From positions 24,986,001 to 25,050,000 of the forward strand of contig NC_073398.1 in NCBI RefSeq assembly GCF_028641065.1: a stretch of DNA of 64,000 nt, in the 5' to 3' direction. Below are positions 12,561-58,349 of this stretch, piece by piece. The notes under the pieces are model-generated. The model was not told where the DNA came from. It did not search any database and saw nothing but the letters and a program-made list of their open reading frames with translations. The position numbers and the translations under genes were made by a program. Source of the DNA: Leucoraja erinacea. Taxonomy: Eukaryota. The first letter of the stretch is position 1; the number at the start of each line of letters is the position of its first letter.

Positions 12561-12599
12561 ATGCCTCTGCGATCGGGAATTCCCTTCTCCTCCCTCCAA

Positions 12600-22127: not shown

Positions 22128-22204
22128 ACTGGAAATCCTAGGTGGCCACTTGCGCTCAGTGCCTGAGTGCCACTGAGCGCAAGTGGCCACTTAGGATTTC
22201 CAGT
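22128..22204. repeat. 34-bp near-perfect inverted repeat (hairpin)
   Basis: actggaaatcctaggtggccacttgcgctcagtg / cactgagcgcaagtggccacttaggatttccagt, 9-nt spacer. Confidence 0.9.
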
Positions 22205-22763: not shown

Positions 22764-24180
22764 GTAATGCTAACACAATCCTGGAAATAATATTCCATGA
22801 GCAAAAGGCAAGGTGCTGGGTGAGCTCAGAGCTTCAATGTTTCAATCGTGCTTTCATTGTCACATGTGAAAGGCAAATAAACAGTGACATTATTTTCTTA
22901 AACAATCCAAAGTATTGTCATACCCAAGCATATTCCCCAATTAGCAAATTCTATAGAAATAGTGTACTGATATGCAAGAGGCACCATTTTATAAGTCCAG
23001 TCCATGCTCCATATAATACGAGTGGTGCGTGTTCCAGGCAAGCCGCAGGCTGCTGCGGGCCTCCATCCGTCACCTGTCGTTGAACGTGTGGGTAACCCAG
23101 TGAACCGATGTCCCTCTCCTCACTCGTCCACCTTTGTTCCCCGGGGGTGCATCTCGCAGTTGACTTTGAAGGCGCAATAGGTCAGATTCTGGTTCCCTTT
23201 CTTCTACCGGCCTTTCTCCTTCCCGGTCGCATCCGTCTTCACCCGCTCCATCCTCCCAGCCTCTGGTCTTCAGGGGACAAACAGGGCTCAGCAGGCTCCT
23301 TTCAGGCTGCGTTCGGCCGTGGGGCACTGGTGTGATGGTCATCTGCCCACTCCCCAGTAGGCCATGGCCCGCCGGGTCTCGTGTTCGGCTGCAAGGGTTC
23401 GGCTCGGCGGCAGAGGTGAGGCAACATCTATGATGAGAAATGTACAGGTGACATTTTGGCTTGAGACTCTTCTTCAGACTTAGTAGGTTGGAGATAATGC
23501 TGGAAAAGAGAGGGGTTGGAGTAGGCCAAATTCTGGCAATGGGTTGGTGAATACAGGTAAGGGGTGATTGGAAGATGGGTCAGATAGTGGCAACGGTGAA
23601 ATTGATTCATAAAGGTGTCACTTAAGGAATGAAGAGAAGTGTCGCGTCAGAGGGAGGGATATGGGTTGAAAGGGAAGGAAGGAAAATCTAAGATGGAGAA
23701 TAAAAAGTGAAAGGGGGGGCATGGAAGGAGGAGATGGCAAAAGGAACAGAAATGGGTATATACATTGGATGTATATAGGTGATTGGCACTGATATCTCTT
23801 GTATGTTGCCATGGATTTGTACTGCAGAACTAACTTTAAAAAAATATAAAAACATTTAATCAGAATTATTGGGCATGCTCATGTACCTTTTGATAAGGTG
23901 ATATATACCATTTCTTAAATGTTGCTGTTGATGGATTCTGGGTGTTCTTAATGGTGCTAGAACAAATTCCAAGACCTTAACTAAACAAATGGGAAGCATC
24001 CGTGATACAACTCGGGATGATGGTGGCAAGGAGGGGAATCTTAAAGATGTTCCCATGCATCTGCTGTTCTTCTGAATGAACCTGTCAGCTTGTGTTACAG
24101 GATTGCTATGACACTCACATCTATTCAATAAAGGCGTACTGTTGCAGTACAACTTGTTCAATCACTTTTTATTTGTTCAG

Positions 24181-27292: not shown

Positions 27293-27803
27293 TGTTTCTT
27301 CGAGGGCTAACCTATGGGATGGATTAGACACACTGTCTGAGCGATTAAAATAGAAATGTGGAAATAGAGGTGTGTATTTGATGGGAGAAAGCTTAGAAAT
27401 ACATTATATGATTTAATGGTGGTTTATAAGGGTCAAGTGGTCATTGTTTTTTTTTTAAAGAGAATATGATGATATAATTGGAGAAGACCACAACTACATC
27501 AGCTAAAATAGAGCTAAAATAAAAGGCACCGTTGCCTTTTTCCTTTGAGAAGAAGGGTTTAGGCCTGAAACGTTGCCTTTTTCCTTCACTCCATAGATGC
27601 TGCTGCACCCACTGAGTATCTCCAGCTTTTTCGTGTACCTTCGATTTTCCAGCATCTGCAGTTCCTTCTTAAACAGATAAAGGGCCTGTTTGCTTTGCAC
27701 GTTTCTATGTACGGAGCAGGCTTGGCAAAGTAGGGATCAATTTGTATTAAGAGTAGAAGTTTGAGTAAGTAATAAACATTTTATTAAAATGTTTGTGTTG
27801 CAG

Positions 27804-28944: not shown

Positions 28945-29432
28945 GTAATTGAAGAGAAGGGGTTTCACACTATTCTTGATACTTGGTGCTGAGTAAGCGC
29001 TGTAAGATAATTTTCTTTCATTCAAACAAATACAAAAACTCATGAGAATTGACCATGGGCATCCTTCTCTAGCCCTTTGCCATTAGACTTGGGTTTATTG
29101 TTAGGTGTACTGAGATACAGTGAAATGCTTTGTTTTGCATGTTATCCAAACAGACCATGTGTATGATGCATTAATACCATCAAGTCAAACTCATGAACAA
29201 TTGGCACAGGAAAGGGTGCAGAGTGCTGAATCTAGTTCTTAGTATTGTGACGCAATAGTCCCATCGACAAAAGTCCAATGTCCGCAAGCGGGTAGAGGTG
29301 AATCTGTCAGTACCCCAGCTTACGCAAGAACAGTTCAGAAGCCAAAGAAAACAGGAAGAAGTTGTGGCTGAATATGGTGGTGTGCACGATCAATCGTCTG
29401 TACGTTCTGCCAGATAGGAGCTGGGAAGTGCA

Positions 29433-31111
29433 CAGTGCCCTCCATAATGTTTGGGACAAAGACCCATCATTTATTTATTTGCCTCTGCACTCCACAATCT
29501 AAGGTTTGTAATAGAAAAAAAATCACATGTGGTTAAAGTGCACGTTGTCAGATTTTAATAAAGGCCATTTTTATATATTTTGGTTTCACCATGTAGAAAT
29601 TACAGCAGTGTTTATACATAGTCCCCCTATTTCAGGGCACCATAATGTTTGGGACACGTGGCTTCACAGGCGTCTGTAACTGCTCAGGTGTGTTTAATTG
29701 CTTCAATACAGGTAAAGAGGTATTGCAGGTATTGTTGAATATCCTTTGTATGTAATGACTGCTTGAAGTCTGCGATTCATGGACATCACCAGTTACTGGG
29801 TGTCTTCTCAGTGATGCTCTGTCAGGTCTGTATTGCAGCCATCGTTAGCTTATGCTTGTTTTGGGGCCTAGTCCCCTTCAGTTTTCTCTTCGGCATATAA
29901 ATGGCATGCTCAATTGGGTTCAGATCGGGCGATTAACCTGACCACTCAAGAATTGACCAATTTTTTAGCTTTGAAAAACTCCTTTGTTGCTTTGGCAGTA
30001 TGTTTTGAATCATTGTCTTGCTGTAGAATGAACCACCGGCCAATGAGTTTTGAGGCGTTTGTTTGAACTTGAGCTGATAGGATATGTCTATACACTTCAG
30101 AATTCATTATGCTACTACCATCAGCAGTTGTGTCATCAATGAAGATAAGTGAGCCAGTACCTTCAGCAGCCATACATGCCCAGGCCATAACACTCCCACC
30201 ACAGTGTTTCACAGATGAGGTGGTATGCTTTGTATCTTGGGCAGTTCTTTCTCGTCTCCATACTTTGCTCTTGCCATCACTCTGATTGATATAAGTTAAT
30301 CTTTGTCTCATCTGTCCACAAGACCTTTTTCCAGAACTGTGGTTGCTCTTTTCAGTACATCTTGGCAAACTGTAACTGTTTTGCGGCTAACCAGTGGTTT
30401 GCATCTTGTTGTGTATTTCTGTTCATGAAATCTTCTGCGGACAGTGGTCATTGACAAATCCACACCCGACTCTGGAAGAGTGTTTCTGATCTGTCGGATA
30501 GGTGTTTGGGGATTTTTTCTTTATTATAGAGAGAATTCTTCTGTCATCAGCTGTGGAGGTCTTCCTTGGCCAGCCAGTCCCTTTGCGATTAATAAGCTCA
30601 CCAGTGCTCTCTTTCTTCTTAATGATGTTCCAAACAGTTGATTTTGGTAAGGCTAAGGTTTGGATGATGTCTCTGACAATGCCATTCCTGTTTCTCAGTT
30701 TCATAATGGCTTCTTTGACTTTCATTGGCACAACTTTGATCCTCATGTTGATAAACAGCAATAACAGTTTCCAAAGGTGATGGAAAGACTGGAGGAAAGA
30801 CTAGGTGCTGAGAGCTTACTTATACTTGCATTAAGAAGGCATTAAAACACATCTGAGCAATTACAAACACCTGTGAAGCCATGTGTCCCAAACATTATGG
30901 TGCCCTGAAATACGGGGACTGTATAAACACAGCTGTAATTTCTACATGGTGAAACCAAAATGTATAAAAATACCCTTTAATAAAATCTGACAATGTGCAC
31001 TTTAACCACATGTGATTTTTTTTTTTTTTCCATTACAAATCCCAAATTGTGGAGTACAGAGACAAATAAATAAATGATGGGTCTTTGTCCCAAACATTAT
31101 GGAGGACACTG
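29433..31111 (-). mobile_element. Tc1/mariner IR/DR-type transposon, full length (~1.68 kb), transposase frameshifted
   Basis: Long TIRs CAGTGCCCTCCATAATGTTTGGGACA...; TA on the right, CA on the left; KSTVWNIIKK, VMAWACM, ILQQDNDSKHTAK motifs. Confidence 0.93.
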
Positions 31112-33074
31112 TAAGGTATAACTGGGATGGGACAGACTTTTGATTATGTTGACTCCTGACCACAGCCATAGCTTTCCCTTTCTCTCTGCCTCGTGACTTT
31201 GGCACTCCACTGCAGGTACCAGTTGGTTTGAATGAAATTCCAGAGTGGGACTGCCAGGGGCAGAATCTATCCTTGTATTTGTGATGTAATTGAACATTGA
31301 CTGTATCCTTGGCCCAATCAGCCAGTATGTGGGTTTCAGTTACTTTATAGAATGTGTGTAATCCACTGACATGAGTATGATGTTTATATCTCCTGTACCC
31401 TGATGAGGCTCTGACACAAACATCTCAAGATTAGGATGGCTTCTGATCTTTCCCAGTACTTGGTGCGTGGCTGCTATGATTCCATTAATGTAGAACAGAA
31501 AAATTAAAGCACAAGAACAGGCCCTATGACCCACAATGTTTGTGCAAAACATAATGCCAAGACATGATCTATATCCCTCCATTCCCAGCACGTGCCTATC
31601 TAGAAACCTCTTGAACGCCAATACCCTTGTTTGAACTAGGGAAAATTACTGTACAGTCTTGGTACCGTATTAAAATAGCACAAAATCTCTTCTCTTAGGA
31701 ACTTGTTACGGGCAATCACCACTCTCTGATTGTTAAAAAAAAAAAAAAAAACGCCCCACACATCTCCTTCAAACATGCTGGGGGGGGGGGGGGGGAATGT
31801 TCTGACTGTCCAACCTATCCTATACCTCTCATTTTGTATACTTCTATCAGATCTCCCCTTACCTTCCAGTGTTAAAAAAAACAACCAAAGTTTGCATAGC
31901 TATTACCCCCTAATTCAGGCAACATTCTGTTAACGGTTCCACTTTTTGACCAAAGTATTTTGCCTGTGCCTTGATGACCAGAATATTGCATTATGAGATA
32001 TGTCAGACAAGCAACGGGAAATTTAAGTTGGTGATCAATAAGCATAGACAAGATTCCAGCATCCGTAGTTCCTTTTGTCGTCTTGTAATGTTTTGACAAG
32101 ATAGAATTTCAATGTTCAGGCTGTAATCGAGCCATTAGTATGGTTAAAACCATACTGCCAATATCGTGCATGAACAATCGTTTCATATTTTGTATTCTGC
32201 TTTTTCAAACAACTTCATTCCTTGCATTTATGGTCGTGAAATTTCACATGTAAAGCGGAGTCTGTGAAGCTACTTCCCTTACCTTGAATTTGCATCTTCT
32301 TGCAGAGCAGAGGGAACCCACATTTTGACAACATTACACAATATATTGAGCAGCAGCAGGCAGTTTGGCCTTTTTGACCACCTCTATAATTTATTACAAT
32401 CATAACTAATCCTCTTAAAACCATGCTCCTGCTCTTACTACACTGCTTGGTGTCGTTTGTGAATGCAAATCTATCTGCCTGCTCCAATATATTCAGTGAC
32501 TGAGTAGGTGTTAGAAGCAGGTACTCTTTAAATATATATAAATAAATAAAATTAACAAGTATTTAATTGGGTACTTGAAACATCATGGCACAGACGGCTA
32601 CAGGTAGAGTGCTAGAAAGTATTAGAACAGATGGGTACTTGATGGCTGGCACAGGTGTGAGGGGCCAAAGGGCCTATTTCTAGGTTGCTTGACTTGTACA
32701 TGCTTCCTCCCACCCTCTGCTCCCTAACCGATGCCTGTCTCAGACTACTCGTACACACACTCAACGTTATTTTTCAAAAGCGATCTATTGAATTCGATTT
32801 GAATTGATCAACACTGTCCTAGGGAGCCTGTACCTTGGATTGACCATTTGCTCACTGAAGCGTTGCACTAGACAGTTTAATTTTGAATTTTCCCTCCCCA
32901 CTTTCATGTGCAGGCCGTATCAATGGTCTTCTGCTTAGACAAAGTGAAAGATTTTGAGGTCAATGCAGCAAACATGGAATTTTACTAAGAGTAAAGGGCT
33001 AATATTACAGTGTGAAAGAATATTATCAAGAATAACAAAATAGGTTATAGAATATTATCAAGAATAACAATGAC

Positions 33075-33585
33075 TAGGCCATTTCGCCCTTCGAGCCAGC
33101 ACCGCCATTCAACTCTCCCCATATCCCTTGATTCTGCTAGCTCTAAGAGCTCTAACTCTCTTTTGAAAGCATCCAGTGAATTGGCCTCCACTGCCTTCTG
33201 AGGCAGAAAATTCCTCAAATTCACAACTGAGAAAAAGTTTTTTCCTCATCTCAGTTTTAAATGGCCTAACCCTTATTCTTAAACTGTGGCCCCTGGTTCT
33301 GTACTCCCCCAACATCGGGAACATGTTTCCTGCATCTAGCGTGTCCAATCCCTTAATAATTTTATGTTTCCATAAGATCCCCTCACATCCTTCTAAATTC
33401 CAAAGCCAATTAACTTATAAACCTGTACATCTTTGGAAAATGGCAGTTAACCGGAGCACCTGGAGAAACCCCACATGGTCACAGGGAGAAGGTACAACCT
33501 ACGTTCAGACTGCACCCGTAGTCAGGATTGAACCCCGGTCTCTGGCGCTGTAAGGCAACAACTCTATCGCTGTGCCACCGTGCTG
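33075..33585 (-). mobile_element. CR1 3' end fused to a V-SINE 5' part
   Basis: LDAGNMFPMLGEYRTRGHSLRIR; then a V-SINE V-domain and tRNA head. Confidence 0.75.
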
Positions 33586-34451: not shown

Positions 34452-34929
34452 GTATGCAAACTTGCTGAAAATATTTACTTTGATATTTCTTTTAAATTTA
34501 ATATTCAGCGGGTTTATTTAAAATGCAGCTACCAGAAGTCAGCAGAAGATTTTTGAGGATGTTCATGTTTGGGTTCTGAATCGGTATATACTGTCAATAT
34601 TGATAAGAATTCAAATGCAGTATTTTCAGACAGATATTTGAGCTGTTCTAAGACCCAGAATTTTCAACATATGGTCTACAGCAGTAAATTGCAATAAGAT
34701 TCAATAGTTAAACATATGTTCATTTTTGGGAAGTTGGTATTGCTAGAAAGTTTTATTGCTTTATTGTTCATCCTTGACTGCCTGAGTGGCTGATAATGTA
34801 CTTTGTTCCCTGAAATGATATTAATATTGCACAACCACTTCTAGTCCAAATTCTACTCTATACCAGTGAAACATTTTTGTTTGAGGCAAAGGAGCAATAT
34901 ATCCCATGTCTTGTATTGCTGCAATTTTC

Positions 34930-35153
34930 ATATTTCACTTTGAACTTTTTTTGTATATCTTTCATTCATTGTTCTTTAATTCTCCACATCACCGTCTATA
35001 TCTCTCGTTTCCCTTATCCCTAACCAGTCTGAAGAAGGGTCTCGACCCGAAACGTTACCCATTCCTTCTCTCCAGAGACGCTGCCTGTCCCGCAGAGTTA
35101 CTTCAGCTTTTTGTGTTTTTGGTTTAAAGCAGCATCTATAGTTCATTCTTACA
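34930..35153 (+). mobile_element. Penelope-like terminal repeat with intact hammerhead-like core (35029-35056)
   Basis: CTGAAGA-A-GGGT CTCG ACCC-GAAA-CGTT. Confidence 0.75.
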
Positions 35154-36075
35154 CAGTGCTATTCTCTTGCTCTTCAACCAGGTGCTGCCTGTGGCAGAGT
35201 TCCTCCTGCGGGTTTTTGTTGTTCTCTTTTGCTGATTGGATGACTTCCTTATGAAATATCTGTGTATTGTCCTCAAGCACGACTTTGAGCTTCTAGGTGC
35301 CTGCCGATTTTGAACTCTATCTCACTCCCACTCAAAAGCCCTCTGCCTCCTACACTGTTCCATCGAAGCTTGAGGATCAACACCTCCCTTCCAGCCAATT
35401 CTAGATTTGAAATTGTATTCAGTAATTTCATATTTCTACCGGTATCTCGTAAGTCGTTTAGACAATTTCGGGTAATTATTCTGCCTTCCCTATTTACAAC
35501 TCGTACGAGCTTTTGTTTCCTTATTTGATCAGCTATCACTATTTCATGTTGCACTCGGCTTCCTTTTTTAATTTAATCTCTCCACATTTCTGTCCACTGT
35601 ATACATTCCTTTTTTAAATGTTCTTGATTCCCCTCTGTCCTGACGTTTCTCTGCAGCTTAGCTCTTGTTCTATCCTTCAAAAAATTAAATGAATCTAATA
35701 TTAGCTGTCTTTGTATTCAAAGATCCTGCCTTTTATGCAGGGAATTTCCATTCGTAGAGGAACAAAATCCTTCAGCCCACTGAGTTCACACTGACTATTA
35801 AGATCACATCTCTTTACACCAATAGAATTCAAACTCGTTTTATTTTCCCCAGTAATTTTTGGTGTTGATTCTTGCTGTAATGTTCTAGGCCAATGTTATC
35901 ACTACACTAGTAAATGCCCCTTGTAGTTCTCACAGAGTCGAATAGTTTACACTACTGTTTTAGTTGTTTCCATTTTGTATCCAAGGTCCTTATTTTCGCA
36001 AACCTTAATTTGTTCTGAAATTCCACTCAGAATGCTGGCTATTGGATTAAGCACTGATCTGTTCTTCTATTCCAG

Positions 36076-36177
36076 GAACTGTTTATTGCTAACTCCCAGC
36101 AGTATGCTCAAGAAACAGCTCTGTCCCTCCGTGTAAAGGACTGGGAGGATAAGATTGGTCCACGATTAGTGAAAGAA
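36076..36177 (+). CDS. NCAPH2: NCAPH2 coding exon 18
   Basis: [34 protein letters not shown]. Confidence 0.95.
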
Positions 36178-38094
36178 GTGAGTGTACCTTAAATTGGTTT
36201 AATGTAATGAGCAAATTTAAGGGGTTGATTGTATTGCTGAAAGTCTAGACCGGAGGCATGAACCCATTTCTAGTTAGCAGCATAATTTTCTGTTGGGTTT
36301 TCACTCCCTGCCCCCTCATATTTCTACATTACCATTGTGTAGTTCTACATAGGTTGCCAGTTCAGTAACTGGTAAAATGGGGAGAGGAGTCGGCAGGAAA
36401 TGAAGTATGTCTAAAAAGTAAAAATAATGGCGTGCGTTTGACTAACGTTTGAAATTATGGTTACAAATTAAGTGCAAGGATCTGCTGTGAAAATATCACC
36501 AGGTTAAATTAAAACAATTTTTGTAGATGGACATATATTGTCCACGAGTTTTTGTTTTGTTATTTGCGATGAAGGTTCTGATAAACTGTTGCCTGTAAAA
36601 ATATCTCTCAGGCTTGCTCAGATAAGTAGACCAATGTTGCATTTCTCCCAAGTGAACACAACAAGCTGCCAAATCTGTTTTCTAATGACACGATTAAGGG
36701 TCATTTTGTTTATTGGCCAAACTCCCAAGTTGGAGAAATAAGTATTTTCTGAGTTTGTTTGTGCACAAGGGTTTAAAATGTAAAACTTAAGCTGATTAAT
36801 TACGATGAATGACTAATTAAATCATAAATTTATTCTGGCAATTTTGAGGGTAGTGGTGGTGGGTGTTACGGAAAGAGTAAGACCTTGGCAGAATTGGAAA
36901 AAAATATTAATAAACCTTCAGAATGAGCATGTAATTGGGATATTAATTTGTATGCAGAAAAATGTGAAGAACCACATTTTGATTAGCAGCATAATAAGTT
37001 AAATAGTAACAAAAGGATAAGATTGACAAGAACAAATAAATAAGATAATGGAACACGATAAACTAACATTTGAAAATAAACAAGGTTTTATTTATGGGCT
37101 AGAACTGAAAAATAAATATATGCTAAACCTGTGTTAAGGATTGGTCATATTTGAAGAAATGGTCAGTCTTAAAAACTGGAGACACTAGAGGAGATGTGCC
37201 TTTAAAAAATAATGTACATGGCGAATTATAAAAATTCAGAAACTCAATGGAATAAAGATGAACAGGATGGGTGTCTCTTGAAAAGATGAGTCTTATTGGA
37301 GAAATTATGAATAGTTTTAATCAAAGACTTCAGAGAATTCCACACAGAACTAAAAGGCTTCAGTGTAAGGAAATCAAATAGAAAACATTAAACTTTTCCC
37401 TCGTGTTAAGAAAACAGAACTTTGGTCGGTTAGTTTAACATCTGTCATAGGGAAAATCATAGAAGCTTTATTAAATATGTTCTGGAGAGCACTCAGAAAA
37501 AATAATCAGGGTTAGTTGGCAAAGTTACTGAGATTTTGTGCAAGGGAAATAATGCCTCAATCTGAGTTCTTTGTGAAGAACTAATATATTGTTGGTAAAG
37601 GGGAACCACTGGATCTGTTAAAGTAAAATGCCATTTTTCTGGCAGTCAAAACTTTGGTGTCAGACAAGCGGATTCCTATATACGCTAAGCATTTTTAAAT
37701 TCACTTTTTAAAGATGTTACACAGTAGGAAAAAAATTCCAGTTAACCGTTTAAAAAAAAAAAAAAAAAAGTTGAGTAACAGACAGAGGTAAGTTTCAAGA
37801 CGGCACAGGAAATGGAACTGGGTGAGTTTATAAGGAGCCCAGGAAATGGAGCTCAGCTGTGTTAAAGGCATCCTGTGTGCCAGATGATGAACCTTCGGGA
37901 TTCCTAAATATTTAAAACAAATGAAAGGAATTTTATGGTATTTAGACATCCAGAAGATATTTAATAAAGTATCACATGAGAGGTTATTGCAGAAAATAAA
38001 AGCTCATGGTGTAGAAGGTAACAAAGGCTTGGATCGAAGATTGGCTGCCGAGCACAAACCAATGTAGACACGAGTCATTTTCCGGTTGTTAAAT

Positions 38095-38410
38095 TAGTTT
38101 AGTTTAGAGTTACAGCGCGGAAACAGGCCCTTTGGCCCACCAGATCCGTGCCGACCAGCGATCCCCGCACATTAACACGATCCTACACCCACTAGTGACA
38201 ATTTTTACATTCACCAAGCTAATTAACCTACAAACCTGTACGTCTTTGGAGTTTGGGAGGAAACCGAAGATCTCGGAGAAAACCCACGCAGGTCATGGGG
38301 AGAACGTACAAACTCCGTACAGACAGCGCCTGTGGTCGGGATTGAACTTGGGTCTCCGATGCTGCATTTGCTATGGCAACAACTATACCACTGCGCCACT
38401 GTGACCGCCC
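38095..38410 (-). mobile_element. V-SINE
   Basis: (tagtt)n tail, V-domain, tRNA head on the minus strand. Confidence 0.8.
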
Positions 38411-38462
38411 AATGTAATAAGTAGTGTACGTGTATACTGAAATAGGAGATGTGATCTCTACT

Positions 38463-39362
38463 GTTACACAGAAAAGCTGGAGAAACTCAGCGGGTGCAGC
38501 AGCATCTATGGAGCGAAGGAAATAGGCAACGTTTCGGGCCGAAACCCTTCTTCAGACTGATCAGGGGTGGGGGTGGGTGGGGACAAGAAAGGGAAAAGGA
38601 GGAGTAGCCGGAAGGCTGGAGGGTGGGAGGAGACAGCAGGGGAGCTGAGGAAGGGGAGGAGACAGCAAGGACTAACAGAGTTGGGAGAAGTCGATGTTCA
38701 TGCCCCCGGGATGCAGACTCCCCAAACGGAATATGAGGTGCTGTTCCTCCAATTTCCGGTGCTGCTCGCTGTGGCCATGAAGGAGACCCAGGACAGAGAG
38801 GTCGGAGATGGAGTGGGAGGGGGAGTTGAAGTGCTGAGCCACCGGGAGGTCAGCTTGGTTATTGCGGACCGAGCGGAGGTGTTCGGCGAAACGATCGCCC
38901 AACCTCCGCTTGGTCTCACCGATATAGATCTGCTGACATCTAGAGCAGCGGACGCAATAGATGAGGTTGGAAGAGATGCAGGTAAACCTCTGTCGCACCT
39001 GGAACGATTGCTTGGGTCCCTGAAAGGAGTTGAGGGGGGAGGTAAAGGGACAAGTGTTGCATCTGCTGCGGCCGCAAGGGAAAGTGCCCGGGGAGGGGGT
39101 GGACCGAGAGGGAAGGGAAGAATTGACAAGGGAGTTATGGAGGGAGCGGTCTTTGCGGAAGGCAGATATGGGGGGAGATGGGAAGATGTGGCCAGTAGTG
39201 GGGTCACGTTGGAGGTGGCGAAACTGACGGAGGATTATTTTTTGTATGTGATGGCTGGTGGGGTGAAAGGTGAGGACTAGGGGGACTCGGCCCTTGTTGC
39301 GAGTGCGGGGATGGGGAGAGAGAGCAGTGTTGCGGGGTATGGAAGAGACCCTGTGTTAACAC
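38463..39362 (-). mobile_element. 5'-truncated Penelope-like retroelement (GIY-YIG endonuclease + 3' terminal repeat)
   Basis: NLIYCVRCSRCQQIYIGETKRRLGDRFAEH...PGGMNIDF; 13-bp flanking duplication tgtgatctctact (38450, 39363). Confidence 0.9.
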
Positions 39363-40039
39363 TGTGATCTCTACTTATTGTTTTGGATAAAGGAATTGAA
39401 GATGTGAATGTTTAATTTGTTGATGACGCAAAGATGGGTAGGAAAGTAAGTTGAAGAGGATGTATGGAGGATGCAAACAAATGTAGATAGTTAATCGTGG
39501 GCAGATATTGCATAATGTGGAAACATTTTGGCAGGAAAAATAAGAAAGCAATCTTTTATCTAATTAGTGCGAATAAAGAGTTGCTGTTTAAGAAAAGGTT
39601 AAATTTCTGAAGGTAACAAAAGTTTGGAACTTTCCACAAAACGTCAAAGAAGAGGTTTTGAATATTTTTTATGGCAGTTTGATTATTGATAAGGGAAGAA
39701 AAAATTACGGGGTAAGTGGGAATGCGTTTGAAATTACAATCAGAGTATCTGTGATTTTATTAAATGGCATGGTAAGTCTGAGCCAGGCAGTCTATTCCCA
39801 ATTTCTATGTAACTCACTCCCATTGGGATTGGATTGGCTGAATAGTACAGATGCATTTAAAAGTCAAGTGTTTCGTGGTCATATGTGCCTTTAACTGAAT
39901 GATCAAATTCCTTTTTGCTGCAGCTTAATAGGCCTGTAAACACAAATATGTAATCAGTAATACAATACATTAATAACTAATACTAGGTAACTAAATAATG
40001 CAAAACTGAAATCCATTGTGCAATCAATGAGACCGTTCA

Positions 40040-40540: not shown

Positions 40541-40911
40541 AAGCCACAAAAACATTAGTGCGGAGCGAATAGAGGGTGATGCTGAAGAGGAAAAATGGGG
40601 AGAGGAGTGCACCATGTACATTAAGTGGTAAATGACTTGTTTCGGTGCTAAATGTGCTATGTAATTTTATATCAACAGATTACATTTTTACTATATTTGT
40701 GCATGGAGTGGAAAATGAAAATTACATTCACATTCCTAAAAGGTGAATTTGGTAAACATTTGATGGAGAAAAACTGCAGGATATGGAACTAATTTACTAT
40801 CTCTTTCAAAGAGCGTAATGGGCCAAATGTTGCTTTATGCTTATTCAATTTTTGTGACAACTTTTCTGCATCCTGATCAACTGTGACTTTTTGTTTTTTC
40901 TGACACACTAG

Positions 40912-41061
40912 GAGGAGAGAGCTGGATTTGCTATCCATGATTATGGGGATAGAATTGTGGATGCATTTGATTACATTAAACAAAGACTTTCGTTTGCAAA
41001 TATAGTGGCTGGGAAGGAGTCGTTTGAGGTGTGTCGATACATGCTGGCATCGCTACAGTTG
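40912..41061 (+). CDS. NCAPH2: NCAPH2 coding exon 19
   Basis: EERAGFAIHDYGDRIV...FEVCRYMLASLQL (C-terminal kleisin domain). Confidence 0.96.
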
Positions 41062-41826
41062 GTGAGTATGCTTTTCAAGTAAGAATAAAATCTGACAAGT
41101 AGGATATTCAAACATTCACTGAAAAGGGAATATCCCGAGTTAATGTAGGTCATGGAAGGGAATCTTGGTTTGGGGAGATGGGGGAACATCTTGTAAACTA
41201 GGCAGATGCGAAGCAAAGTTTGAATTGAAGTAAATTGGCTGAAGCATTCTGGCTAATGGCTGAGAAACTTCATAATTTGCAAATGTTTGAGGTAGTGAGA
41301 TTTTCCTTTTGAGTGTCACAATTTTATTGGCAAGACGACTCTTGAGCAGGCCTCGATATCAAAAAGTTGGGACTTTTCACTAGACAGCCAGTACTTCAGC
41401 ATTCAACACAGATTATATTTTAGCAGTCCAAAGGACAGTGCTGGGGTTAGCTATGCTGGCAGGAAGAACAATCCTGACTCAGCATATTTAGAGCTGGTAC
41501 AGGTCAATCTTATCTTGCAGATTAAAGGTAATTGAGAATTTCACTGATAGCATCTCATTGTGCATTTGGATTGATATGTGCTCCTTGGGTTTGCCTGGTA
41601 TTGTATGGGCTAAGTTTTGCTTCATTGTTGTCGTCGTCGTCGTCCCCCCCCCCCCCTCTGGTACAAGAATTGAATGTTATGAGATGCTTGAAAAATTATT
41701 CATTTTCTGCTGTTGAAATGACTCGGATATGTACTTGTACAGTCTGCACCGGATTTGGCTGTGCTATTGAGCTGGGATAATTTGTAATTATTTACCTATT
41801 GACGAAATCTTGTTCCTTCTGCACAG

Positions 41827-41967
41827 GCTAATGATTACACAGTGGAAATATGGGAAAGAGATGGATTGTATGAGTCAGTTGACACAATGGAACTCACCTT
41901 GCTGAGCAAAGAAAGAGCTCATGATCGATTCCGCACCTACATGGCTCCATCCCTTTCCAACAAATGA
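41827..41967 (+). CDS. NCAPH2: NCAPH2 coding exon 20 (terminal, TGA at 41965-41967)
   Basis: ANDYTVEI...VDTMELTLLSKERAHDRFRTYMAPSLSNK*; total spliced CDS 1827 nt. Confidence 0.96.
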   Translation, partial: ANDYTVEIWERDGLYESVDTMELTLLSKERAHDRFRTYMAPSLSNK

Positions 41968-43192: not shown

Positions 43193-44839
43193 ATTAACTG
43201 GCAACAAATGGTGGAAATGTCAGTGTTTGAGAACTTTGTTAATAGGGCAGCAAACAAAGCATTATTTTTACTATCTAGCTGAGCTGTATATTGTCAAATT
43301 TATTTTAATGTTCTAAGAATTATTTTTTTAAATGATTATTGGAAAGGCAGTTTGAGGATGGGTAACAAACAGTTCACTGTTGTACAGTGAAGAAATGCAT
43401 AGGGGACAAGTTGTTCACGGATACATATTGACCACTAACTATTTATGCATTGAATGTGTTACTAGTGTGGTTAGAAGGCAGTTCTTTGGCCCAACTTGTC
43501 CATAAGTTGCCTGCACTTGGTCTATATCCCTCTAAACTCTTCCTAACTGTTATGTCCAAATGTATTTTGAAAGTTTTCATTGCATTTACTACTATAGCTT
43601 CCTTTGGAACCAAATAATTATCCTGCTTCATCCTGATTTTATGAATGTTGAATTATCCATGTTCAAAATGCAGATCACTGATCATCACGAACTTGACTAT
43701 TTGGCCCGAAGCGTTGCCTATTTCCTTCGCTCTGTAGATGCTGCAGCACCCGCTGAGTTTCTCCAGCATTTTTGTGTACCTTACATAAATACTAAGGTAG
43801 TCAGAAGCTGGATATTCTCACCAGGTAGTCAGAAGCTGGATATTCTGCAACAAATAAGTTAAAATCTTCTGAATATTCCTTCCATAAGCAATGGTACTGA
43901 TTCACCTCTACCCCCTTGATGATATTGGAAGTTGTTTAAACAACTGATGCACTACAATGCAGAGAGCTATATTCTGCACTCTTATCTGTGGTCTATCGTA
44001 AGTTTGTACTGATTGATTCTATGTAACTCATCTATTTGGATAGCATGCAAAAACAAAGCTTTTCATTGTACTTTGGTACATGTGACAATAATGATAAACC
44101 TAAAAAAAGTTACTCAAGCCTTACTCCTACTTATGAAGTGCGAGTTAGTAGGAATAAATAGTTTCTGCCTGGTCCTGTTCCAATACCACTCATGGTTTTC
44201 AACCAGACACCAGCCTGCTTGCCAAGCATGCGTTCAATCATGTGTTGGTAATTCATCTCACCATGAGAACAGCTCTGCAGGTGGGACACTGGACAGTGGC
44301 CTTGGCCTAATTTTCTTGGCCGAATGACCTAAGGTGTTCACTGATGACTGCAATGTTTGATTCCATTTGCAACTCCAGGAAAGGAAGCAGCCTATGCCTG
44401 TATATGAAAACCATACTTCATAGAAGAAAGCCTTTTGGTCCACCACCCATGGCTAAACTTGTAACCATCTGGACTAAACCTGTGTAGCAGCACTTGGTCT
44501 GTAGCCTTCCATGCATTAGCAATTTGTATAGATTTCTGCCACTACCAGTATATAGTCCTAGATTTCAGCTACCCTGAGTGAATGGATTCCTCCTCAGATC
44601 TTTGTCTTACTCTAAACATGCCTTCCCATGTTAGGCATCTCTGCCATGAGGAAGGTTTTGTATATTTCTAAACAGACTGCCCATCCAACCTCAAATGAAA
44701 TTCCCAATTTCCCATATAATGTCCTTGTGAATCTTTTTTGCACCTTCTCCAGTGTAATCATCCTTCCTACAGTGTAGCCGAGTTATTCACAATATTACAG
44801 CTGTGGACCGACTTGATTTTTATAAAGTTGGACCACAAC

Positions 44840-45764: not shown

Positions 45765-45896
45765 CAGTCTGAAGAAGGGTTTCGGCCGAAACGTTAAATA
45801 TTTCCTTCGCTCCATAGATGTTGCCGCACCCGCTGAGTTTCTCCAGCACTTTTGTCTACCTTCGATTTTCCAGCATCTTCAGTTCCTTCTTAAACA
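45765..45896 (+). mobile_element. Penelope-like terminal repeat with hammerhead-like core
   Basis: ctgaagaagggtttcggccgaaacgtt... Confidence 0.7.
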
Positions 45897-46977: not shown

Positions 46978-48162
46978 TCAACTGAACAGTTGAACATGGG
47001 TTTTCATGTGGCCTCGGATACTCTCAGCGATTTCCTGATCAGTTTTGCTCCTATTGTAGTAATCGATGAAAAGTCCATCAGGGTTGAGAAGATAAATGAT
47101 AATGGTGTGATCCACAATGTAGTCATTATCTTCATCCTTTGGACCAGCACTGTAATACACCCGATATGCCTTTCCCAGTTCCTTGATCTGTTCTGGGGTC
47201 CCAGTTAGCCCAATCATACGAGTGTGAAAATCCTTGATGTATTTTGCCATCTCTTTCACTCCATCTCTTTCTGGATCCACTGTGATGAAAATAGGTTGGA
47301 CAGATGGAAGTGCTCTGTCCATGTCCAAAATGAGTATTGCATTAGACATCTTCTCCATCTCATCAGGGCAGATGTCAGGGCAATGAGTGAATCCAAAGTA
47401 CAACAGCACCCACTGGCCAAAGAAATCACTCTTGGTTCTGGGTCTTCCAGTGTGATCTAGCAAGTTGAAATCACCTTGACCAAGTACCAATTTCTTCAGC
47501 TGCTCATGGCGTTTCAACTTCTCCTGTTTCTTTTTTTCCAAGTGAACATAGAAACAAAATCCCATCACAGCAGCTCCAAAGAGGCAAGTCACTAGAATTT
47601 TTTTCTGCAGTGTTATCTGTTGGCTTTTGGCAGATTTCCCCGAATTTTTGTCTGAAGACAACTTTGAGAATGATCTGTGGGTCAATAGGATTAAGTTGCC
47701 TGGTGTTACTGACATAACTCCACGAGCAAGATGGCAGGTATTTAATATACTGCTGGTTCTCAAAAACTGTACAGCTGTAAATTGAAGCTTCTCTTTCAAA
47801 CAACGGTGTGAGGCTTTGTGAATTGTTAATAGTGGGACACTTTTCCCTGAATAGTTCACTAGAGTTTCAGTGTTCTGAGGTGGCAGTATAGATGATTTCT
47901 TAGTTGGCTGGGTTCTCTTAGTACAGGAATAGGAAAGCAGGTTTGTACCAAAGTGTTTCAAAACTGTATGGTTACAGTTGATAACAATAGATTTAGCCTG
48001 TAAAGGCCATTCTGTTTCCATGCTGACATTATGCGTTTTTGTTCCTAAGTGTCCATTACTCAAACGTTTTGCATTACTCAAAATCGCTTTGCCATCTCTG
48101 CCTGCAACCTCGATACGAAAAGCTGCTAACTTCAGGAATTGGCCAATGTCCAAAAGTTGACC
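46978..48162 (-). CDS. SCO2: Protein SCO2 homolog, mitochondrial (cytochrome c oxidase copper chaperone), main coding exon; true start uncertain
   Basis: TM segment, GQWVLLYFGFTHCPDICPDE (CxxxC), VDPERD, DYIVDH; intronless core and position next to NCAPH2 favour SCO2 over SCO1; acceptor ttttacag| at 48163. Confidence 0.93.
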   Translation of the reverse strand, partial: GQLLDIGQFLKLAAFRIEVAGRDGKAILSNAKRLSNGHLGTKTHNVSMETEWPLQAKSIVINCNHTVLKHFGTNLLSYSCTKRTQPTKKSSILPPQNTETLVNYSGKSVPLLTIHKASHRCLKEKLQFTAVQFLRTSSILNTCHLARGVMSVTPGNLILLTHRSFSKLSSDKNSGKSAKSQQITLQKKILVTCLFGAAVMGFCFYVHLEKKKQEKLKRHEQLKKLVLGQGDFNLLDHTGRPRTKSDFFGQWVLLYFGFTHCPDICPDEMEKMSNAILILDMDRALPSVQPIFITVDPERDGVKEMAKYIKDFHTRMIGLTGTPEQIKELGKAYRVYYSAGPKDEDNDYIVDHTIIIYLLNPDGLFIDYYNRSKTDQEIAESIRGHMKTHVQLFS

Positions 48163-48369
48163 CTGTAAAATGCAGGTGCCCAATCTTGCATACATCTTCA
48201 CATCTTCAAAAGTAAAACAAACACATGCCAAATTAAATACATTGGAGAAATATCCCTATGACACACAAGAACAAAAAGGAACACAATCCTCTAATCAAGG
48301 AAATTCTGTTGAAACTCACTTCACAAACAGGCGACATGCACAGACCAACGCGTCTAGTTGCCCACTTGT

Positions 48370-49270
48370 AAAGATTTACTGTCCCACTAGTAACCCGCTT
48401 GCAAAGACCCACTGGTCCACCCGGTGGCCCGCTTCCCCACCATAGTCGCACTTGCAGAGATCCAGTGGCCCGCTTGCAGAGACCCACTGGTCCACCAGTA
48501 GCCCACCTGCAGACTCACTGACCGCCGGTGGCACACTTGCAGAGATCCACTGGCCCAGCAGTAGCCCATCTGCAGAGACCCAGTGGCCCACCTGCAGGGA
48601 TCCACTGGCCCATTTGCAGAGACTCACTTGCCCAACAGTAGCCCACCTGCAGAGACACACTGCCACAGTAGTAGCCCACCTGCACAGACCCAGTGGCCCA
48701 GCAGTAGCCCACCTGCAGAGACCCAGTGGCCCACGTGCAGGGATCCACTGGCCGAGCAGTAGCCCACCTGCAGAGATCCAGTGGCCCACCTGCAGGGATC
48801 CACTGGCCCATTTATAGAGACTCCCTTGCCCAACAGTAGCCCACCCGCAGAGACGCACTGCCACAGCATTAGCCCACCTGCAGAGATCCAGTGGCCCACC
48901 TGCAGAGACCCAGTAGCCCACCTGCAGGGATCCACTGGTCCACCAGTAGCCCACCTGCAGAGATCCAGTGGCCCACCTGCAGAGATCCAGTGGCCCACCT
49001 GCAGAGACCCAGTGGCCCACCTGCAGAGACCCAGTGGCCCACCTGCAGAGACCCAGTGGCCCACCTGCAGAGATCCACTGGTCCACCAGTAGCCCACCTG
49101 CAGAGACCCAGTGGCCCACCTGCAGAGATCCAGTGGCCCACCTGCAGAGACCCAGTGGCCCACCTGCAGAGACCCAGTGGCCCACCTGCAGAGATCCAGT
49201 GGCCCACCTGCAGAGACCCAGTGGCCCACCTGCAGGGATCTACTGGCCCACCAGTAGCCCACCTGCAGAG
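48370..49270. repeat. GC-rich minisatellite, ~22-bp unit CCCACCTGCAGAGA(C/T)CCAGTGG with longer variants
   Basis: Direct tandem periodicity; fills the SCO2 intron. Confidence 0.95.
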
Positions 49271-49302
49271 AGCCCAAGGGCCACTCCGATCCTACAATTC
49301 AC

Positions 49303-50653: not shown

Positions 50654-50974
50654 TAATATTGCCCAGAATTGATCATTAGAGAATAAGGATTAACATCAGT
50701 GTCTGTTTGTATTTGAATTTATTTTGGAGCTGTAGGATCTTCAGGAGCTTTTTTATTCCAATGTAAATTCCACTCACGCCCACATATCAGAGTAGGTGGA
50801 AACAATTAAATAACCAAAACCTTACTGAATAACTCACCATTACGAATCATCACTGAGAATTGCAAGCCAACGGAGGGCCAATGCTGGTATTTGAATGTAG
50901 AATCATAATTGGTGCGTGAAATGGCGCCAGTCCCAGAATTGGTCTTTGCATAGGTACAATCGTTAAGTTCGTTT

Positions 50975-51570
50975 TAGTTTAGAGATGCAGCATGGAAACA
51001 GGCCCTTCGGCCCGCCGAGTCTGCACCAACCAGCGATCCCTGCACATCAGCTTTATCCTACATACTCTAGGGACAATTTACATTTATACCAAAGCTAACT
51101 AACCTATAAATCTGTATGTCTTTGGAGTGTGGGAGGAAATCGAAGATCTTGGGGTCATGGGGCAAACGTACAGACTCCATACAGACAGCACCCGTAGTCG
51201 GGATCGATCCCGGGTCTGTGCCACTCTGCTGCCCCTTGATGTTGTATGAGGTTTGTACTTTGCCACTGACCACATGGTTATCTAAGTCTTCTTGCAGGGA
51301 TTTAGCTTAGTTTAGTTTCGAGATGCAGCGTGGAAATAGGTCTGCGACGACCAGCAATCCCCACATAGTAACACTATTATTAACACTGTCCTACACACAC
51401 TAGGGACAATTTTTACATTTACCAAGCTAATTAATCTACATACCTGTACGTCTGTGGAGTGTTGGCGGAAACCGAAGATCTCGGAGAAAACCCACGCAGG
51501 TCACGGGGAGAACATAAAACTCCATACAGACAGCACCCGTAGTCGGGATCGAACCCAGGTCTCCGGCGCT
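50975..51570 (-). mobile_element. Two tandem V-SINEs
   Basis: Two copies of (tagtt)n-gagatgcagc..ggaaa..V-domain. Confidence 0.8.
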
Positions 51571-52374: not shown

Positions 52375-53510
52375 TCTATATTACTAAAAGTCTCATCTTG
52401 AACACTTCCTGTTGCACTGTATATTGATTTTAGAAAAAACCCTGCCACCTACGACTGTGATTTTTGGCCATCTTACTCAGAGTCCTCCACCGCTGGTCAG
52501 GACATGAGGATTTTTCCCATCGATGAAAAATAAAAGACCAGGAAGTGTGGAGGTGCCTCAGTTCTCTGCAAGATGGGGGAGCGAGAGGTTGCAATTCTCA
52601 GTCTGAGCTGTGAATAACACTGAACACATGTCTACTAAACTGTGAGTGGTTTGACTGACCTGTCAGGATCTTTAGCATTCTCAAACCAAATGCTTTTTTG
52701 GTTTGAGAATGCAAAAGTTGCCTTGCCTAATTGAAAAATTGGTTTGAGAATGTTAAAGTTGCCTTGCCTAATTGAAAAGTTGGTTTGAGAATGCTAAAGT
52801 TGCCTTGCCTAATTGAAAAGTTGGTTTGAGAATGCTAAAGTTGCCTTGCCGTCTATATAATTAAAAGTGTAATCTTGACCACTTCCTGTTTGCGCTGTAT
52901 ATTGATTTTAGGAAAAACACTACCACGTACGGCTGTGATTTTTGGCCATATTACTCAGTCCCCCTCTGCTCATCAGGTGCCAAGGATTTTCCCATTGATG
53001 AAAAATAAAAGATTTATTAGTGTTTAAAAAATGGTGAGATTCTCCCTCCTGTCAATCATGCCATGAAGGCCATGCCCCTTCTGGTGGGAGGGACTATAAA
53101 ACCTGGATGTGTGGGTGTGGCAGTCTCTGCAAGAAGGGGAAGGGAGAGGTCACGACTCTGTCTTTAGTGGCCTTGTACCCTGCTTGAAATGGTATGAAAC
53201 TGCATTTGAATTTGGTGGCCTTGCACCCTGCTTGAAATGGTATGAAACAGCACTTGAATTTGGTGGCCTTGCACCCTGCTTGAAGTGGCATTTCAAGGAA
53301 TAGCCGTGAGTCAACTGCCAGCCCACCAGCCTTGAGTGAGTGAGCTGCCAGCACACCAGGCTGGAGTGACTGAGCTGCCAGCCCAAGAATCCATTCGGCC
53401 CACAATGTCCATACTAGCCCTCTGGAACCCAGTCCCTTCAGCCCACAACACCCATACTTGCGCTCCAGAAAGCCCCCCCGCCACCCCCCAACGGGTCCCA
53501 CTTAGTCTAG
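52375..53510 (+). mobile_element. Non-autonomous Helitron-like element with duplicated 5' end and internal minisatellites
   Basis: A|TC...CTAG|T termini; second TC-end at 52852; ~41-bp repeat x4 and ~48-bp repeat x2.5. Confidence 0.7.
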
Positions 53511-53724
53511 TAATATCGATAAGTGTTATTGCATTTATGGGCCTGTTAAGTTACAAAGTAATAATTTCATTGTTCCATTGTTGATACATATAACAATTAA
53601 ACACTCTTGACTCTTGCATTATCAAGTTGACACATTTAGGGAGTCTATAGATACTCCCACCAATATCTTCCTTTTCATGCTGCTCATGATTTCAACCCAA
53701 ACCAATTTTGCATTGCAGTTCAGA

Positions 53725-54185
53725 TCAGTCTGAAGAAGGGTCTTGATCCGAAATGTCACCCATTCCTTCTCTCCAGAGATGCTGCCTGTCCCGCTGAGTT
53801 ACGCCAGCATTTTGTGTCTATCTTCGTTTAGTCTGAAGGCAGATCGGTCAGAGGCACTGCATCTGCAGTTCTGTCCTGCACACACAGTCCACTGCTTCTA
53901 TATCAGAACGGAACAGTGAATGATACCTTCCTTGATTAACAATGTTACTCTGTCTCCTTTTCCTTTTGGCCTATTTCTTGCAACATTGTATAACCTGGAA
54001 TATTGAAATCCCAGTCCTAGTCACTCTGCAACTGTATCTCCATAACAGAGACCAGTATCATTATGTGTGAGAAAGAACTGCAGATGCTGGTTTAAATCGA
54101 AGGTAGACACAAAATGCTGGAGTAACTCAGCGGGACAGGCAGCATCTCTGGAGAGAAGGAATGGGTGACGTTTTGGGTCGAGACA
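53725..54185. mobile_element. Tail-to-tail pair of Penelope-like terminal repeats
   Basis: + copy 53725-53885, - copy 54065-54185. Confidence 0.7.
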
Positions 54186-55799: not shown

Positions 55800-56029
55800 C
55801 TGGAAATGGTGTGTAAATGACAGGAGAAAAATATAGAAATAATTTATGCATTTTCATGAAACATTTGAAAAAAATGGTAACAAATTGATTTTTTCTGACA
55901 TTTTAAGCATGGATTTTTACAGATACTTAGTTGTTGAATCAGATTCCACTGTATTAACTGCCTGTCTATGGGGAAAGTCGTGCTTTGGGACATAAAATGG
56001 ATGGATGCACAACTCATTTATTGTATTCA

Positions 56030-57150
56030 AGAAGGAACTGCAGATGCTGGAAGATCGAAGGTACACAAAAATGCTGGAGAAACTCAGCGGGTGCAGCAGC
56101 ATCTATGGAACGAAGGAAATAGGCGACGTTTCGGGCCGAAACCCTTCTTCAGACTGATGGGGGGTGGGGGGGGAGAAGGAAGGAAAAAGGGAGGAGGAGG
56201 AGCCATGGGCGGGGAAATGGGAGGAGACAGCTCGAGGGTTAAGGAAGAGGAGGAGACTGCAAGGGCTAGCAAAACTGGGGGAATTCAACGTTCATGCCAC
56301 CCGGATGCAAGCAACCCAGGCGGAATATGAGGTGCTGTTCCTCCAATTTCCGGTGTTGCTCACTCTGGCAATGGAGGAGACCCAGGACAGAGAGGTCGGA
56401 TTGGGAATGGGAGGGGGAGTTGAAGTGCTGAGCCGCCGGGAGTTCAGGTAGGTTATTGCGGACTGAGCGGAGGTGTTCGGCGAAAATGATCGCCCAACCT
56501 CCGCTTAGTCTCCCCGATGTAAATCAGCTGACATCTAGAGCAGCGGATGCAGTAGATGAGGTTGGAGGAGATACAGGTGAACCTTTGTCGCATCTGGAAT
56601 GACTGCTTGGGTCCTTGAATGGAGTCGAGGGGGGGAGGTGAAGGGACAGGTGTTGCATTTCTTGCGGTTGCAACGGAAAGTGCCCGGGAAGGGGGTGGTA
56701 CGGGAGGGAAGGGAAGAATTGACAAGGGAGTTGCGGAGGGAGCAGTCTTTGCGGAAGGCAGACATAGGGGGAGATGAGAAGATGTGGCGAGTGGTGGGGT
56801 CACGTTGGAGGTGGCGGAAATGGCGAAGAATTATTTGTTGTATTTGCTGGCTGGTGGGGTGAAAGGTGAGGACTAGGGGAACTCTGCCCTTGTTGCGAGT
56901 GCGGGGATGGGGAGAGAGAGCAGAGTTGCGGGGTATGGATGAGACCCTGGTGCGAGCCTCATCTATGGTGGCAGAGGGGAATCCCCGTTCCCTGAAGAAC
57001 GAGGACATTTCCGATGCCCTGATGTGGAACGTCTCATCCAGGGAACAGATGCGGCGTAGGCGGAGGAATTGGGAGTAGGGGATGGAATCTTTACAGGGGG
57101 CAGGGTGGGAAGACGTGTAGTCCAGATAGCCATGTGAGTCAGTTGGTTTG
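56030..57150 (-). mobile_element. 5'-truncated Penelope-like retroelement (RT C-terminus, Cys linker, GIY-YIG, terminal repeat)
   Basis: FRERGFP..VPLVLTFHP..CNRKKCNTC..NLIYCIRCSRCQLIYIGETKRRL; hammerhead-like core 56125-56152. Confidence 0.9.
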
Positions 57151-58349
57151 TATCAATTGTACAATCTCATAATGGAAACCATTATTTACAGTCACTCTTG
57201 GGGTGCTCTTGTTGCTAGTAAGGCCGACATGTATTGTTGAATCCATGTTGCTGTAGTTGCATGGAGCCACTTCACATGAAAGTACAAATAACTGTGGGAC
57301 TGGAAGGAGAAATTGGTTAAACTGGTGAAGATGGTGAATGTCCTATCTTGAAGGAATTTAAAAACCAGAACAAACTTTCATGATAGTCTAACAGATTCAT
57401 GGTCAGTTTTACCAATGCAAAATTTTCATTTTGGTGCCCATCCACCCAGTCTCCTTATTCACCCATCAAAACCCATCTCCCATGTCTGTTATCAAAGTCC
57501 ATAATCCAGCAACCAGCTCTCCCTCAATATCCATTTATTATTTCTCAGCCATTGAAACCCAACCATTCAGCTTCTAATTTTCCCATCAAAGACCACCCCT
57601 CAATCCTCTTGTTCTCCCCCATTAAAGCCAACCTTTCGGCTCATCAATACCCAACCCTCTTGCTCTCTAATTTTGCATGAAAGCCATCCTCCAATGCCAC
57701 CATTCTTTAGTTGGTCACCCTTCCAGTCCCCTAATTTTCTCTAGTTAATTATTTATTTTTATGTGATTTAAAGTTTGCCAAATATTTCATGGATTGTAAG
57801 AGGCTGATTGTGAACTAGCATGGAGAGCTTTCTTCATTCATTTATACCTGGGATAGTTAATTTAAATTTTAATTTGTCCATCTGGTATCTCCTCCAAAGC
57901 TATGTTATTCCTATCATTTCATTCAAAGGGTCTTCTCGGATAATGTTTTTCGATCACTGTCTAAACATGTCCTCCTTTTCCTTCTTTACACTGCTTTCTG
58001 AGTTCAACCATGGAAAAACTCATCTAATTAATTCACATACAAGATTCAACTGTTCAGCATTCGCCCTCCATCTGCACTGATATTTCTGCAGCTATAAATT
58101 ATCTCCCTCACACTCCTGCTTCCACCTTTGATCTTTCAAATCCATTAACACTTTTAATCCCTCACCCTAATTGTTGTTCATTACAGCTCTCATATCCACT
58201 CGCCTAAACTGAAGGGATTTTATGGACTGTAAAAACAAGGAACTACACATTATAGTAAACAAATATAGACACAAATTGCTGGAGTAATCAGGCAGATCAG
58301 GCAGCATCTCTGGAGCATACGGATAGGTGATGCTTTGGTCGGGATCCTT

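Follow-up and report, generated by a model that had tools for sequence, protein, structure and literature searches.

Gene and repeat content of the window

The window, that is, the whole stretch of 64 kb of Leucoraja erinacea DNA analysed here, is occupied in large part by NCAPH2, of which the exons were recognised by matches to the Pfam domains CNDH2_N, _M and _C (Table 1). An exon at 707-1447 (-), which we take to be LMF2-like, had no Pfam match, and a single-frame SCO1/SenC gene, probably SCO2, lies at 46978-48255 (-); the gene order LMF2, NCAPH2, SCO2 is known from human. Beside the SCO gene, an array of 11/22/33-nt units (48332-49298) has long stop-free frames on both strands. As for other repeats, long terminal inverted repeats at 29432-31112 enclose broken frames (no Pfam match at 1e-3) that presumably resemble Tc1/mariner transposase, and RT-like frames of other LINE-type elements, which we assume to be CR1/L2-like, were found at 9459-10259 (a fragment very common among the sampled loci, see below) and 10879-12631. 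A second dispersed repeat of about 300 nt, SINE-like, occurs at 38094-38401, 33404-33549, 50968-51570 and 2929-3175, with one copy adjoining the element at 38463-39362, and a tandem repeat with a 41-nt unit (about four copies) lies at 52698-52891. A near-perfect hairpin of 75 nt at 22129-22203 is likely a mere inverted repeat; its Rfam match to mir-624 is far under the gathering score.

Table 1. Positions of the repeat unit, the elements carrying it and the host gene in the 64-kb window
Feature	Position	Strand	Remarks
NCAPH2 coding span (host context)	about 7606-41931	+	Pfam CNDH2_N, _M, _C exon matches
NCAPH2 exon matches	about 7606-7716, 16698-16826, 36076-36177, 40900-41064, 41827-41931	+	
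Minimal type I hammerhead, intact core	38526-38557	-	C3 is 38555; GUU site ends at 38528; stem I of 2 bp
5'-truncated Penelope-like element	38463-39362	-	zinc-finger-like linker and GIY-YIG frame 38672-39355, 3' UTR, hammerhead, short 3' end; flanked by a 13-bp target duplication (38450-38462, 39363-39375)
Second 5'-truncated element	56022-57153	-	RT C-terminus to GIY-YIG, frameshifted; long "tail" end; hammerhead 56152-56125 intact, with GUC site
3' UTR of another subfamily with unit	34927-35155 (5' limit approximate)	+	intact GUU hammerhead 35029-35056
Partial tandem	12601-12825	+	tail, 5' UTR and ORF start, then short 3' UTR piece and unit with broken stem III
Head-to-head inverted unit pair	5798-6029	.	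joined 2-3 nt before CUGA; both cores damaged
Solo unit with tail	4396-4534	-	U4 changed
Solo unit	9165-9265	+	G12 and stem III CpGs decayed; NCAPH2 intron, sense
Old decayed unit	23403-23482	-	NCAPH2 intron, antisense
Unit with tail, truncated within CUGA	27549-27675	+	NCAPH2 intron, sense
Unit truncated inside stem II	43700-43782	+	
Solo unit with tail	45765-45896	+	one-base deletion in stem II
Tail-to-tail pair	53723-54184	.	damaged unit 53723-53829 (+); 5'-truncated unit 54070-54184 (-)
Two old decayed units	58258-58351 and 59376-59494	-	
Old decayed unit	544-624	+	
Further weak unit fragments	4347-4374 and 62186-62254	+	

Hammerhead core

On the minus strand, positions 38555-38528 read CTGAAGA-A-GGGT-TTCG-GCCC-GAAA-CG-TT, 117 nt 3' of a GIY-YIG frame (227 aa, ending at 38672). 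A sequence-only reading of the window had described this as one of about 15 copies of a hammerhead motif on Penelope-derived repeats. With a profile made from six window copies and searched against the 64-kb window, 19 copies of a unit of ~100-135 nt were found, and the full motif (the strict pattern had 0 matches in 200 shuffles) was kept in only three of them (35029+, 38555- and 56152-). These three were among the ten examples given by that reading, and the other seven (4532-, 5925-, 5931+, 9175+, 12731+, 45769+ and 53730+) are damaged: U4 is altered in 4532-, C11.1 is altered in 5931+, G12 is gone in 9175+, a deletion lies within stem II of 45769+, and the stem III palindrome is lost at 5925-, 9175+, 12731+ and 53730+. 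Two copies are ends of GIY-YIG elements, as had been stated; the rest are not all solo, since 12731+ belongs to a partial tandem and 35029+ bears the 3' UTR of another family.

The core CUGANGA, stem II with G10.1-C11.1, GAAA and UH are present in three of the 19 window copies and in all six large cluster consensuses (see below), and an unpaired A at 9.1 (between 9 and 10.1) and an ACGU palindromic stem III in every UTR-family consensus. The earlier assignment to a minimal hammerhead of type I, derived from Penelope and with a palindromic stem III, is supported, and by sequence the hammerhead belongs to the minimal class of Penelope-like elements (PLEs). An Rfam scan of the 64-kb window gave no hammerhead family at E up to 1, which is expected for a form lacking stem III and weakens Rfam membership only.

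Both reported variants of stem II (TTCG loop with U.G, CTCG loop with U-A) proved real, and a third loop variant, CCCG, was found among older copies; presumably all three loops fit the YNMG tetraloop class. Pairing in stem II is kept, but "covarying" was too strong a term, since there is only one one-sided change and no compensatory pair: the variable pair is U-A in 140 and U.G in 28 of 204 sampled copies, and the remaining three pairs are G-C in 6/6 large subfamily clusters. Stem I is very short, as had been cautioned, with 2 bp (U-A or U.G, then G-C) and, at the third position, an A/C mismatch in 87/204 copies and unaligned bases in most others.

Parent element and abundance

The unit forms the terminal repeat of a Penelope-like retrotransposon that is abundant and has RT and GIY-YIG; it is present both 3' of the GIY-YIG frame and 5' of the ORF start, where the order is unit, tail, 5' UTR and ATG at +163. 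A parent-protein search with a window fragment gave 28,186 candidates in the genome, of which 150 were scored; locus L121 has an open frame of 1,052 aa containing RVT_1, and locus L122 has RVT_1 (4.5e-7, above the cut-off) and GIY-YIG (7e-4, just below the cut-off) in the same frame. Repeats at both ends, partial tandems, an inverted 5' copy, an optional tail and target duplication, all traits of EN+ PLEs, are present. GIY-YIG-region sequence lies upstream in members of five of the seven 3' UTR families (37/48, 12/16, 3/14, 1/4 and 3/4 members), and in no member of the other two (4 and 3 members). The window frames have a zinc-finger-like CX4CxxC linker before GIY-YIG; a CX2-5CxxC linker between RT and GIY-YIG is described as a feature of the Neptune type, in kind also in Nematis (PMC8557442), and judged by this linker the element would be of Neptune type.

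In the 2.19-Gb genome, the two variants have 22,457 and 16,624 matches as exact 27-mers, and the pattern for a fully intact core (core, stem II, palindrome and 2-bp stem I) has 33,631; the reversed controls gave 0 in each case. For the total, we sampled 84 stretches of 10 kb at round coordinates on large contigs (839,900 bp; hand-picked, not strictly random), which contained 295 unit matches, with none in the reversed sequence, and extrapolation gave ~770,000 copies in the genome (bootstrap 660,000-876,000), most of them decayed. About 4% of copies are fully intact (12/307 with a looser threshold). The very high copy number proposed earlier is borne out, and so is the warning that many copies are likely inactive.

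Fixed ends of the short copies

Most of the short copies have their 5' end 1-5 nt ahead of CUGA, at a TCAGT that resembles an initiator, and stop at two fixed sites. Their earlier description as "ribozyme-tailed" is inverted for the short units: the hammerhead stands at their 5' edge. Of 159 sampled copies with the core start, 96 are solo, 31 have an inverted partner, 27 a 3' UTR and 5 are in tandem, where the solo class takes in some partial tandems and old copies with unrecognised UTR. Agreement with TCAGT in 188 solos (the sample plus pattern-selected loci) is 77, 72, 62, 44 and 46% at -1 to -5 and reaches background by -7; in 106 UTR-bearing copies it is 87-93%, and a TCAGT-like sequence is kept across all seven UTR families despite their differing UTRs. 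The 3' ends form two peaks, at about +91-98 and +126-130, which match the PLE tail, the interval set by two internal RT start sites in the account of Frangieh et al. (2024, PMC11167929). Target duplications of 8-15 nt were found in 25 of the 85 young solos with both ends (out of the 188), against 1.5% of shuffled pairings; 60 of the 85 have no duplication of 8 nt or more.

For the 5' edge, we used copies joined to a 5' UTR (145 exact tail-to-5'-UTR junctions; 91 copies in 90 loci examined). Starts inside the unit, evenly spread, were seen in 60 of the 91; another 25 start at -10 to +6, and 6 farther upstream. Only 6/31 pass the edge, where a constant truncation rate predicts 83% (p = 8e-15). 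L202 and L222, two copies with no upstream UTR, have their start 2-3 nt ahead of CUGA and continue via tail and 5' UTR into the ORF. Among young sampled copies, 63/129 are truncated within the unit, and ordinary truncation therefore contributes much; of the 66 reaching the edge, 20 extend beyond it and carry UTR. Inverted partners likewise start in the first 10 nt in 33/63 cases.

Downstream, 74 of the 91 copies break off, mostly at +180 to +290, and go on with a second unit or a 3' end, and the junctions of two-unit copies (e.g. L188, L234, L236, L268 and window 12601-12825) vary by locus. The break-off zone and the locus-specific junctions suggest re-priming of RT at a preferred zone. Two loci (L236 and L268) keep two intact cores, 200-213 nt apart.

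Three other sources of the 5' edge were considered and rejected. Cleavage by the hammerhead was rejected since there is no excess of 5' ends at the cleavage site, +28 (5 in 5 nt vs 1.5 per nt nearby, in a set that includes pattern-selected loci). A 3' splice site (pyrimidine tract and CAG) was rejected since target duplications abut or lie near the edge and no upstream exon is shared. A permuted hammerhead, for which the cut would follow the upstream UC at -4, was rejected since position -6 is A or C; it is never G in the 106 UTR-bearing copies, so that there is no pairing with C15.2.

Origin of the short copies

We consider it probable that the unit is a PLE terminal repeat with the known minimal hammerhead and that most short copies are run-off cDNAs, inert after insertion. 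The element RNA would have its 5' end at TCAGT, the initiator-like motif lying about 3 nt ahead of CUGA. The protein would nick the target, and RT would set off from either of two internal sites, near +95 or near +130. From the 3' repeat it would make ordinary 5'-truncated elements; from the 5' repeat it would run off the RNA end and leave a solo unit, the first 100-135 nt of the uncut RNA; where both strands are primed, head-to-head pairs would arise. For cleavage, the hammerhead would need to be a dimer, probably assisted by the protein, and it would not be used before copying. Against this reading, reads of related species showed no site at which many molecules start. Loose read ends do pile up 2-3 nt before CUGA, and we do not count these as evidence of a start site, since the reads come mostly from passively transcribed insertions and the first reference differs from most copies at -4.

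An alternative is that reverse transcription begins on the 3' repeat and breaks off shortly beyond the hammerhead, owing to RNA structure, bound protein or microhomology joining rather than to the RNA end. The rates of passing the edge are alike in the two copy sets (20/66 young, 6/31 5'-UTR-joined), which such a stop accounts for just as well as run-off does, and the edge is smeared over about 5 nt; against it, predicted folding of the edge region is no more stable than that of shuffled sequence (z 0.42, -0.81 and -0.03), the TCAGT-like sequence accompanies seven different UTRs, PLE start sites with initiator-like motifs are described in the terminal repeat (PMC3846280, PMC2377424), and the ORF-length copies L202 and L222 start exactly at the edge. 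We regard an intrinsic stop as unlikely.

The short units might also propagate themselves as a non-autonomous (SINE- or retrozyme-like) family, with transcription of solos and mobilisation in trans, as the sequence-only reading had proposed. Units with fixed ends and their own target duplications, the share of solos (~60%, 96/159, of core-bearing sampled copies), the short two-unit arrays among 74/91 5'-UTR-joined copies, including the two loci with two intact cores, and the report of retrozymes as non-autonomous PLE derivatives (bioRxiv 10.64898/2026.07.22.740005) would all suit such a family. Solo and UTR-bearing copies are, however, found together in 5/6 clusters (sample of 429 copies; the oldest cluster has no UTR-bearing member), and GIY-YIG lies upstream in 5/7 UTR families, so that a separate family is not sustained. 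Furthermore, array junctions are locus-specific and thus not derived from one amplified master, the TC of the initiator-like motif is usually missing from solos, and only one same-strand pair of intact cores less than 1 kb apart was found, among 18 intact cores in 840 kb. A family of its own seems to us improbable.

Returning to run-off from the RNA end, the stronger statement, that solos in their hundreds of thousands are strong-stop-like run-off cDNAs which record the RNA start, the uncut state of the template in vivo and one priming rule, is in our judgement evenly poised. If true, the genome marks the RNA start of a vertebrate Penelope element at base resolution, 3 nt before the core, one rule (internal priming, on either repeat copy and either strand) accounts for solo, inverted and partial-tandem repeats, and the rare 200-nt arrays with two intact cores are retrozymes caught at birth. 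The question bears on how Penelope elements rebuild their end repeats and on the purpose of the hammerhead (PMC8557442, PMC11167929), and ~770,000 insertions with fixed ends (about 120 bp each, ~4% of the genome) offer a large natural data set.

Selection and activity of the ribozyme

Six clusters were built from downstream sequence only (429/629 copies). Among their consensuses, 0/13 core positions are variable vs 18/63 downstream (p = 0.03); with nine clusters, the contrast is weaker (4/13 vs 37/63, p = 0.08). In individual copies, the C11.1/G12 CpG is changed in 28%, near the rate at downstream CpG (24%, p = 0.29), and the catalytic CpGs thus decay like neutral CpG; the stem III CpG is also changed in 28%. 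Non-CpG core positions are less substituted (6.3% vs 9.0% downstream, p = 1e-4), and in base-matched comparison the reduction is seen for A, weakly for C, and is absent for G or T. It may be caused by A runs and unresolved subfamilies, and some selection on copies is possible from the same figures. Source elements have thus preserved the core, and in the copies it mostly decays.

In folding, no copy beats its shuffles, and the predicted minimum differs from the hammerhead fold. In reads of related species (two runs, then four records, with 1-6% of each raw run covered), ends did not pile up. The unit is covered hundreds of times more deeply than the ORF start, as passive transcription would predict. 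In a run of a related species that looks stranded (X21), the unit is read almost equally in both orientations (about 1.1-fold), and reads of the GIY-YIG body (38672-39355) are 2-3-fold skewed toward one strand; the skew hints that long sense insertions are scarcer in transcripts than short ones. A 4-7-fold strand skew in two single-cell runs was set aside, since the direction of the reads is ambiguous and the skew would also follow if oligo-dT primed internally on the purine-rich antisense UTR.

Copies within NCAPH2

Many copies had been placed in NCAPH2 introns, with possible cleavage of the pre-mRNA. Six of the 19 lie within the coding span, four sense (+) and two antisense. The effect on the pre-mRNA finds no footing here: the copy at 38555-38528 is antisense to NCAPH2, and the only intact sense copy, 35029+ (GUU site, 2-bp stem I), has no intact same-strand partner anywhere in the 64-kb window.

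More generally, sense intronic copies might cut host pre-mRNA (e.g. of NCAPH2) often enough to matter, given 33,631 fully intact cores across the genome, the abundance of units in poly(A) RNA of related species and the one intact sense copy inside NCAPH2. On the other side, single minimal hammerheads are described as inactive and dimers as of low activity (Cervera and De la Pena 2014, PMC4209133), the anole hammerhead required its protein (PMC11167929), and 8/9 Xenopus dimers were reported without cleavage and 1/9 as cleaved (bioRxiv 10.64898/2026.07.22.740005). Here, stem I has 2 bp, and folding predicts a minimum other than the active fold; in related species, read ends do not pile up, and unit orientations in X21 are near equal, against a skewed GIY-YIG body. 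We consider frequent host cleavage very improbable, and an effect on host genes unlikely.

Comparison with known systems

The ribozyme is already known and ordinary for the PLE class. Our literature search, in which subscription papers were thinly covered, found no report of the family in sharks or skates (the supplements of PMC4209133 and bioRxiv 10.64898/2026.07.22.740005 may list one; one searched supplement of PMC4209133 had no shark or skate terms) and none of run-off solo repeats.

The minimal hammerheads of PLEs described by Cervera and De la Pena (PMC4209133) are alike in CUGANGA, the extra nucleotide between 9 and 10.1, G10.1-C11.1, the palindromic 15.2-16.2, the location in the terminal repeat, and the occurrence mainly as single dispersed motifs of truncated elements and as opposite-strand pairs; among fishes, Xena, Poseidon and Neptune elements carry them. 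Stem II has 4 bp and stem I 2 bp here, vs 7-8 and 4-5 bp in the Schistosoma families, and a 2-bp stem I is reported for D. virilis (PMC4209133). Intact copies number 33,631 here vs about 4,000 in coelacanth and 9,000 in Xenopus, although by a different search, and we found no description there of a fixed 5' edge such as that seen here (PMC4209133).

Non-LTR retrozymes (bioRxiv 10.64898/2026.07.22.740005), reported from one chondrichthyan, are alike in carrying a type I hammerhead in short PLE-derived repeats and in occurring as dispersed monomers. They are defined there as tandem arrays with at least two complete hammerheads, whereas such arrays are rare here and have locus-specific junctions: none was found in the window, one pair among 18 intact cores in 840 kb, and two in 90 selected loci.

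The Poseidon element of Anolis carolinensis (Frangieh et al., PMC11167929) is alike in the order of the hammerhead and then two internal RT start sites, which set an optional tail. In that system, both strands are cut and extended, the template is uncut RNA, RNA-seq ends are absent at the cleavage site, the product length is fixed by the template's 5' end, and the ribozyme is dispensable for insertion (PMC11167929). The ORF starts at stem II in anole Poseidon vs at the ATG at +163, past the tail, here; the zinc-finger-like linker (Neptune-type) also sets the present element apart, and we found no mention of a mass of solo units with a fixed 5' edge in the account of the anole element (PMC11167929).

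EN+ PLEs of Neptune type (PMC8557442, PMC3846280) are alike in RT, the CX4CxxC linker, the C-terminal GIY-YIG, 5' truncation, partial tandems, the inverted 5' copy, a tail of 30-40 bp, target duplications of 8-10 bp and an initiator-like motif in the repeat. Their solo pLTRs are partly ascribed to recombination or deletion (PMC8557442, PMC3846280); the solos described here, unlike those, have in many cases their own target duplications and fixed ends, and they outnumber the ORF-bearing ends.
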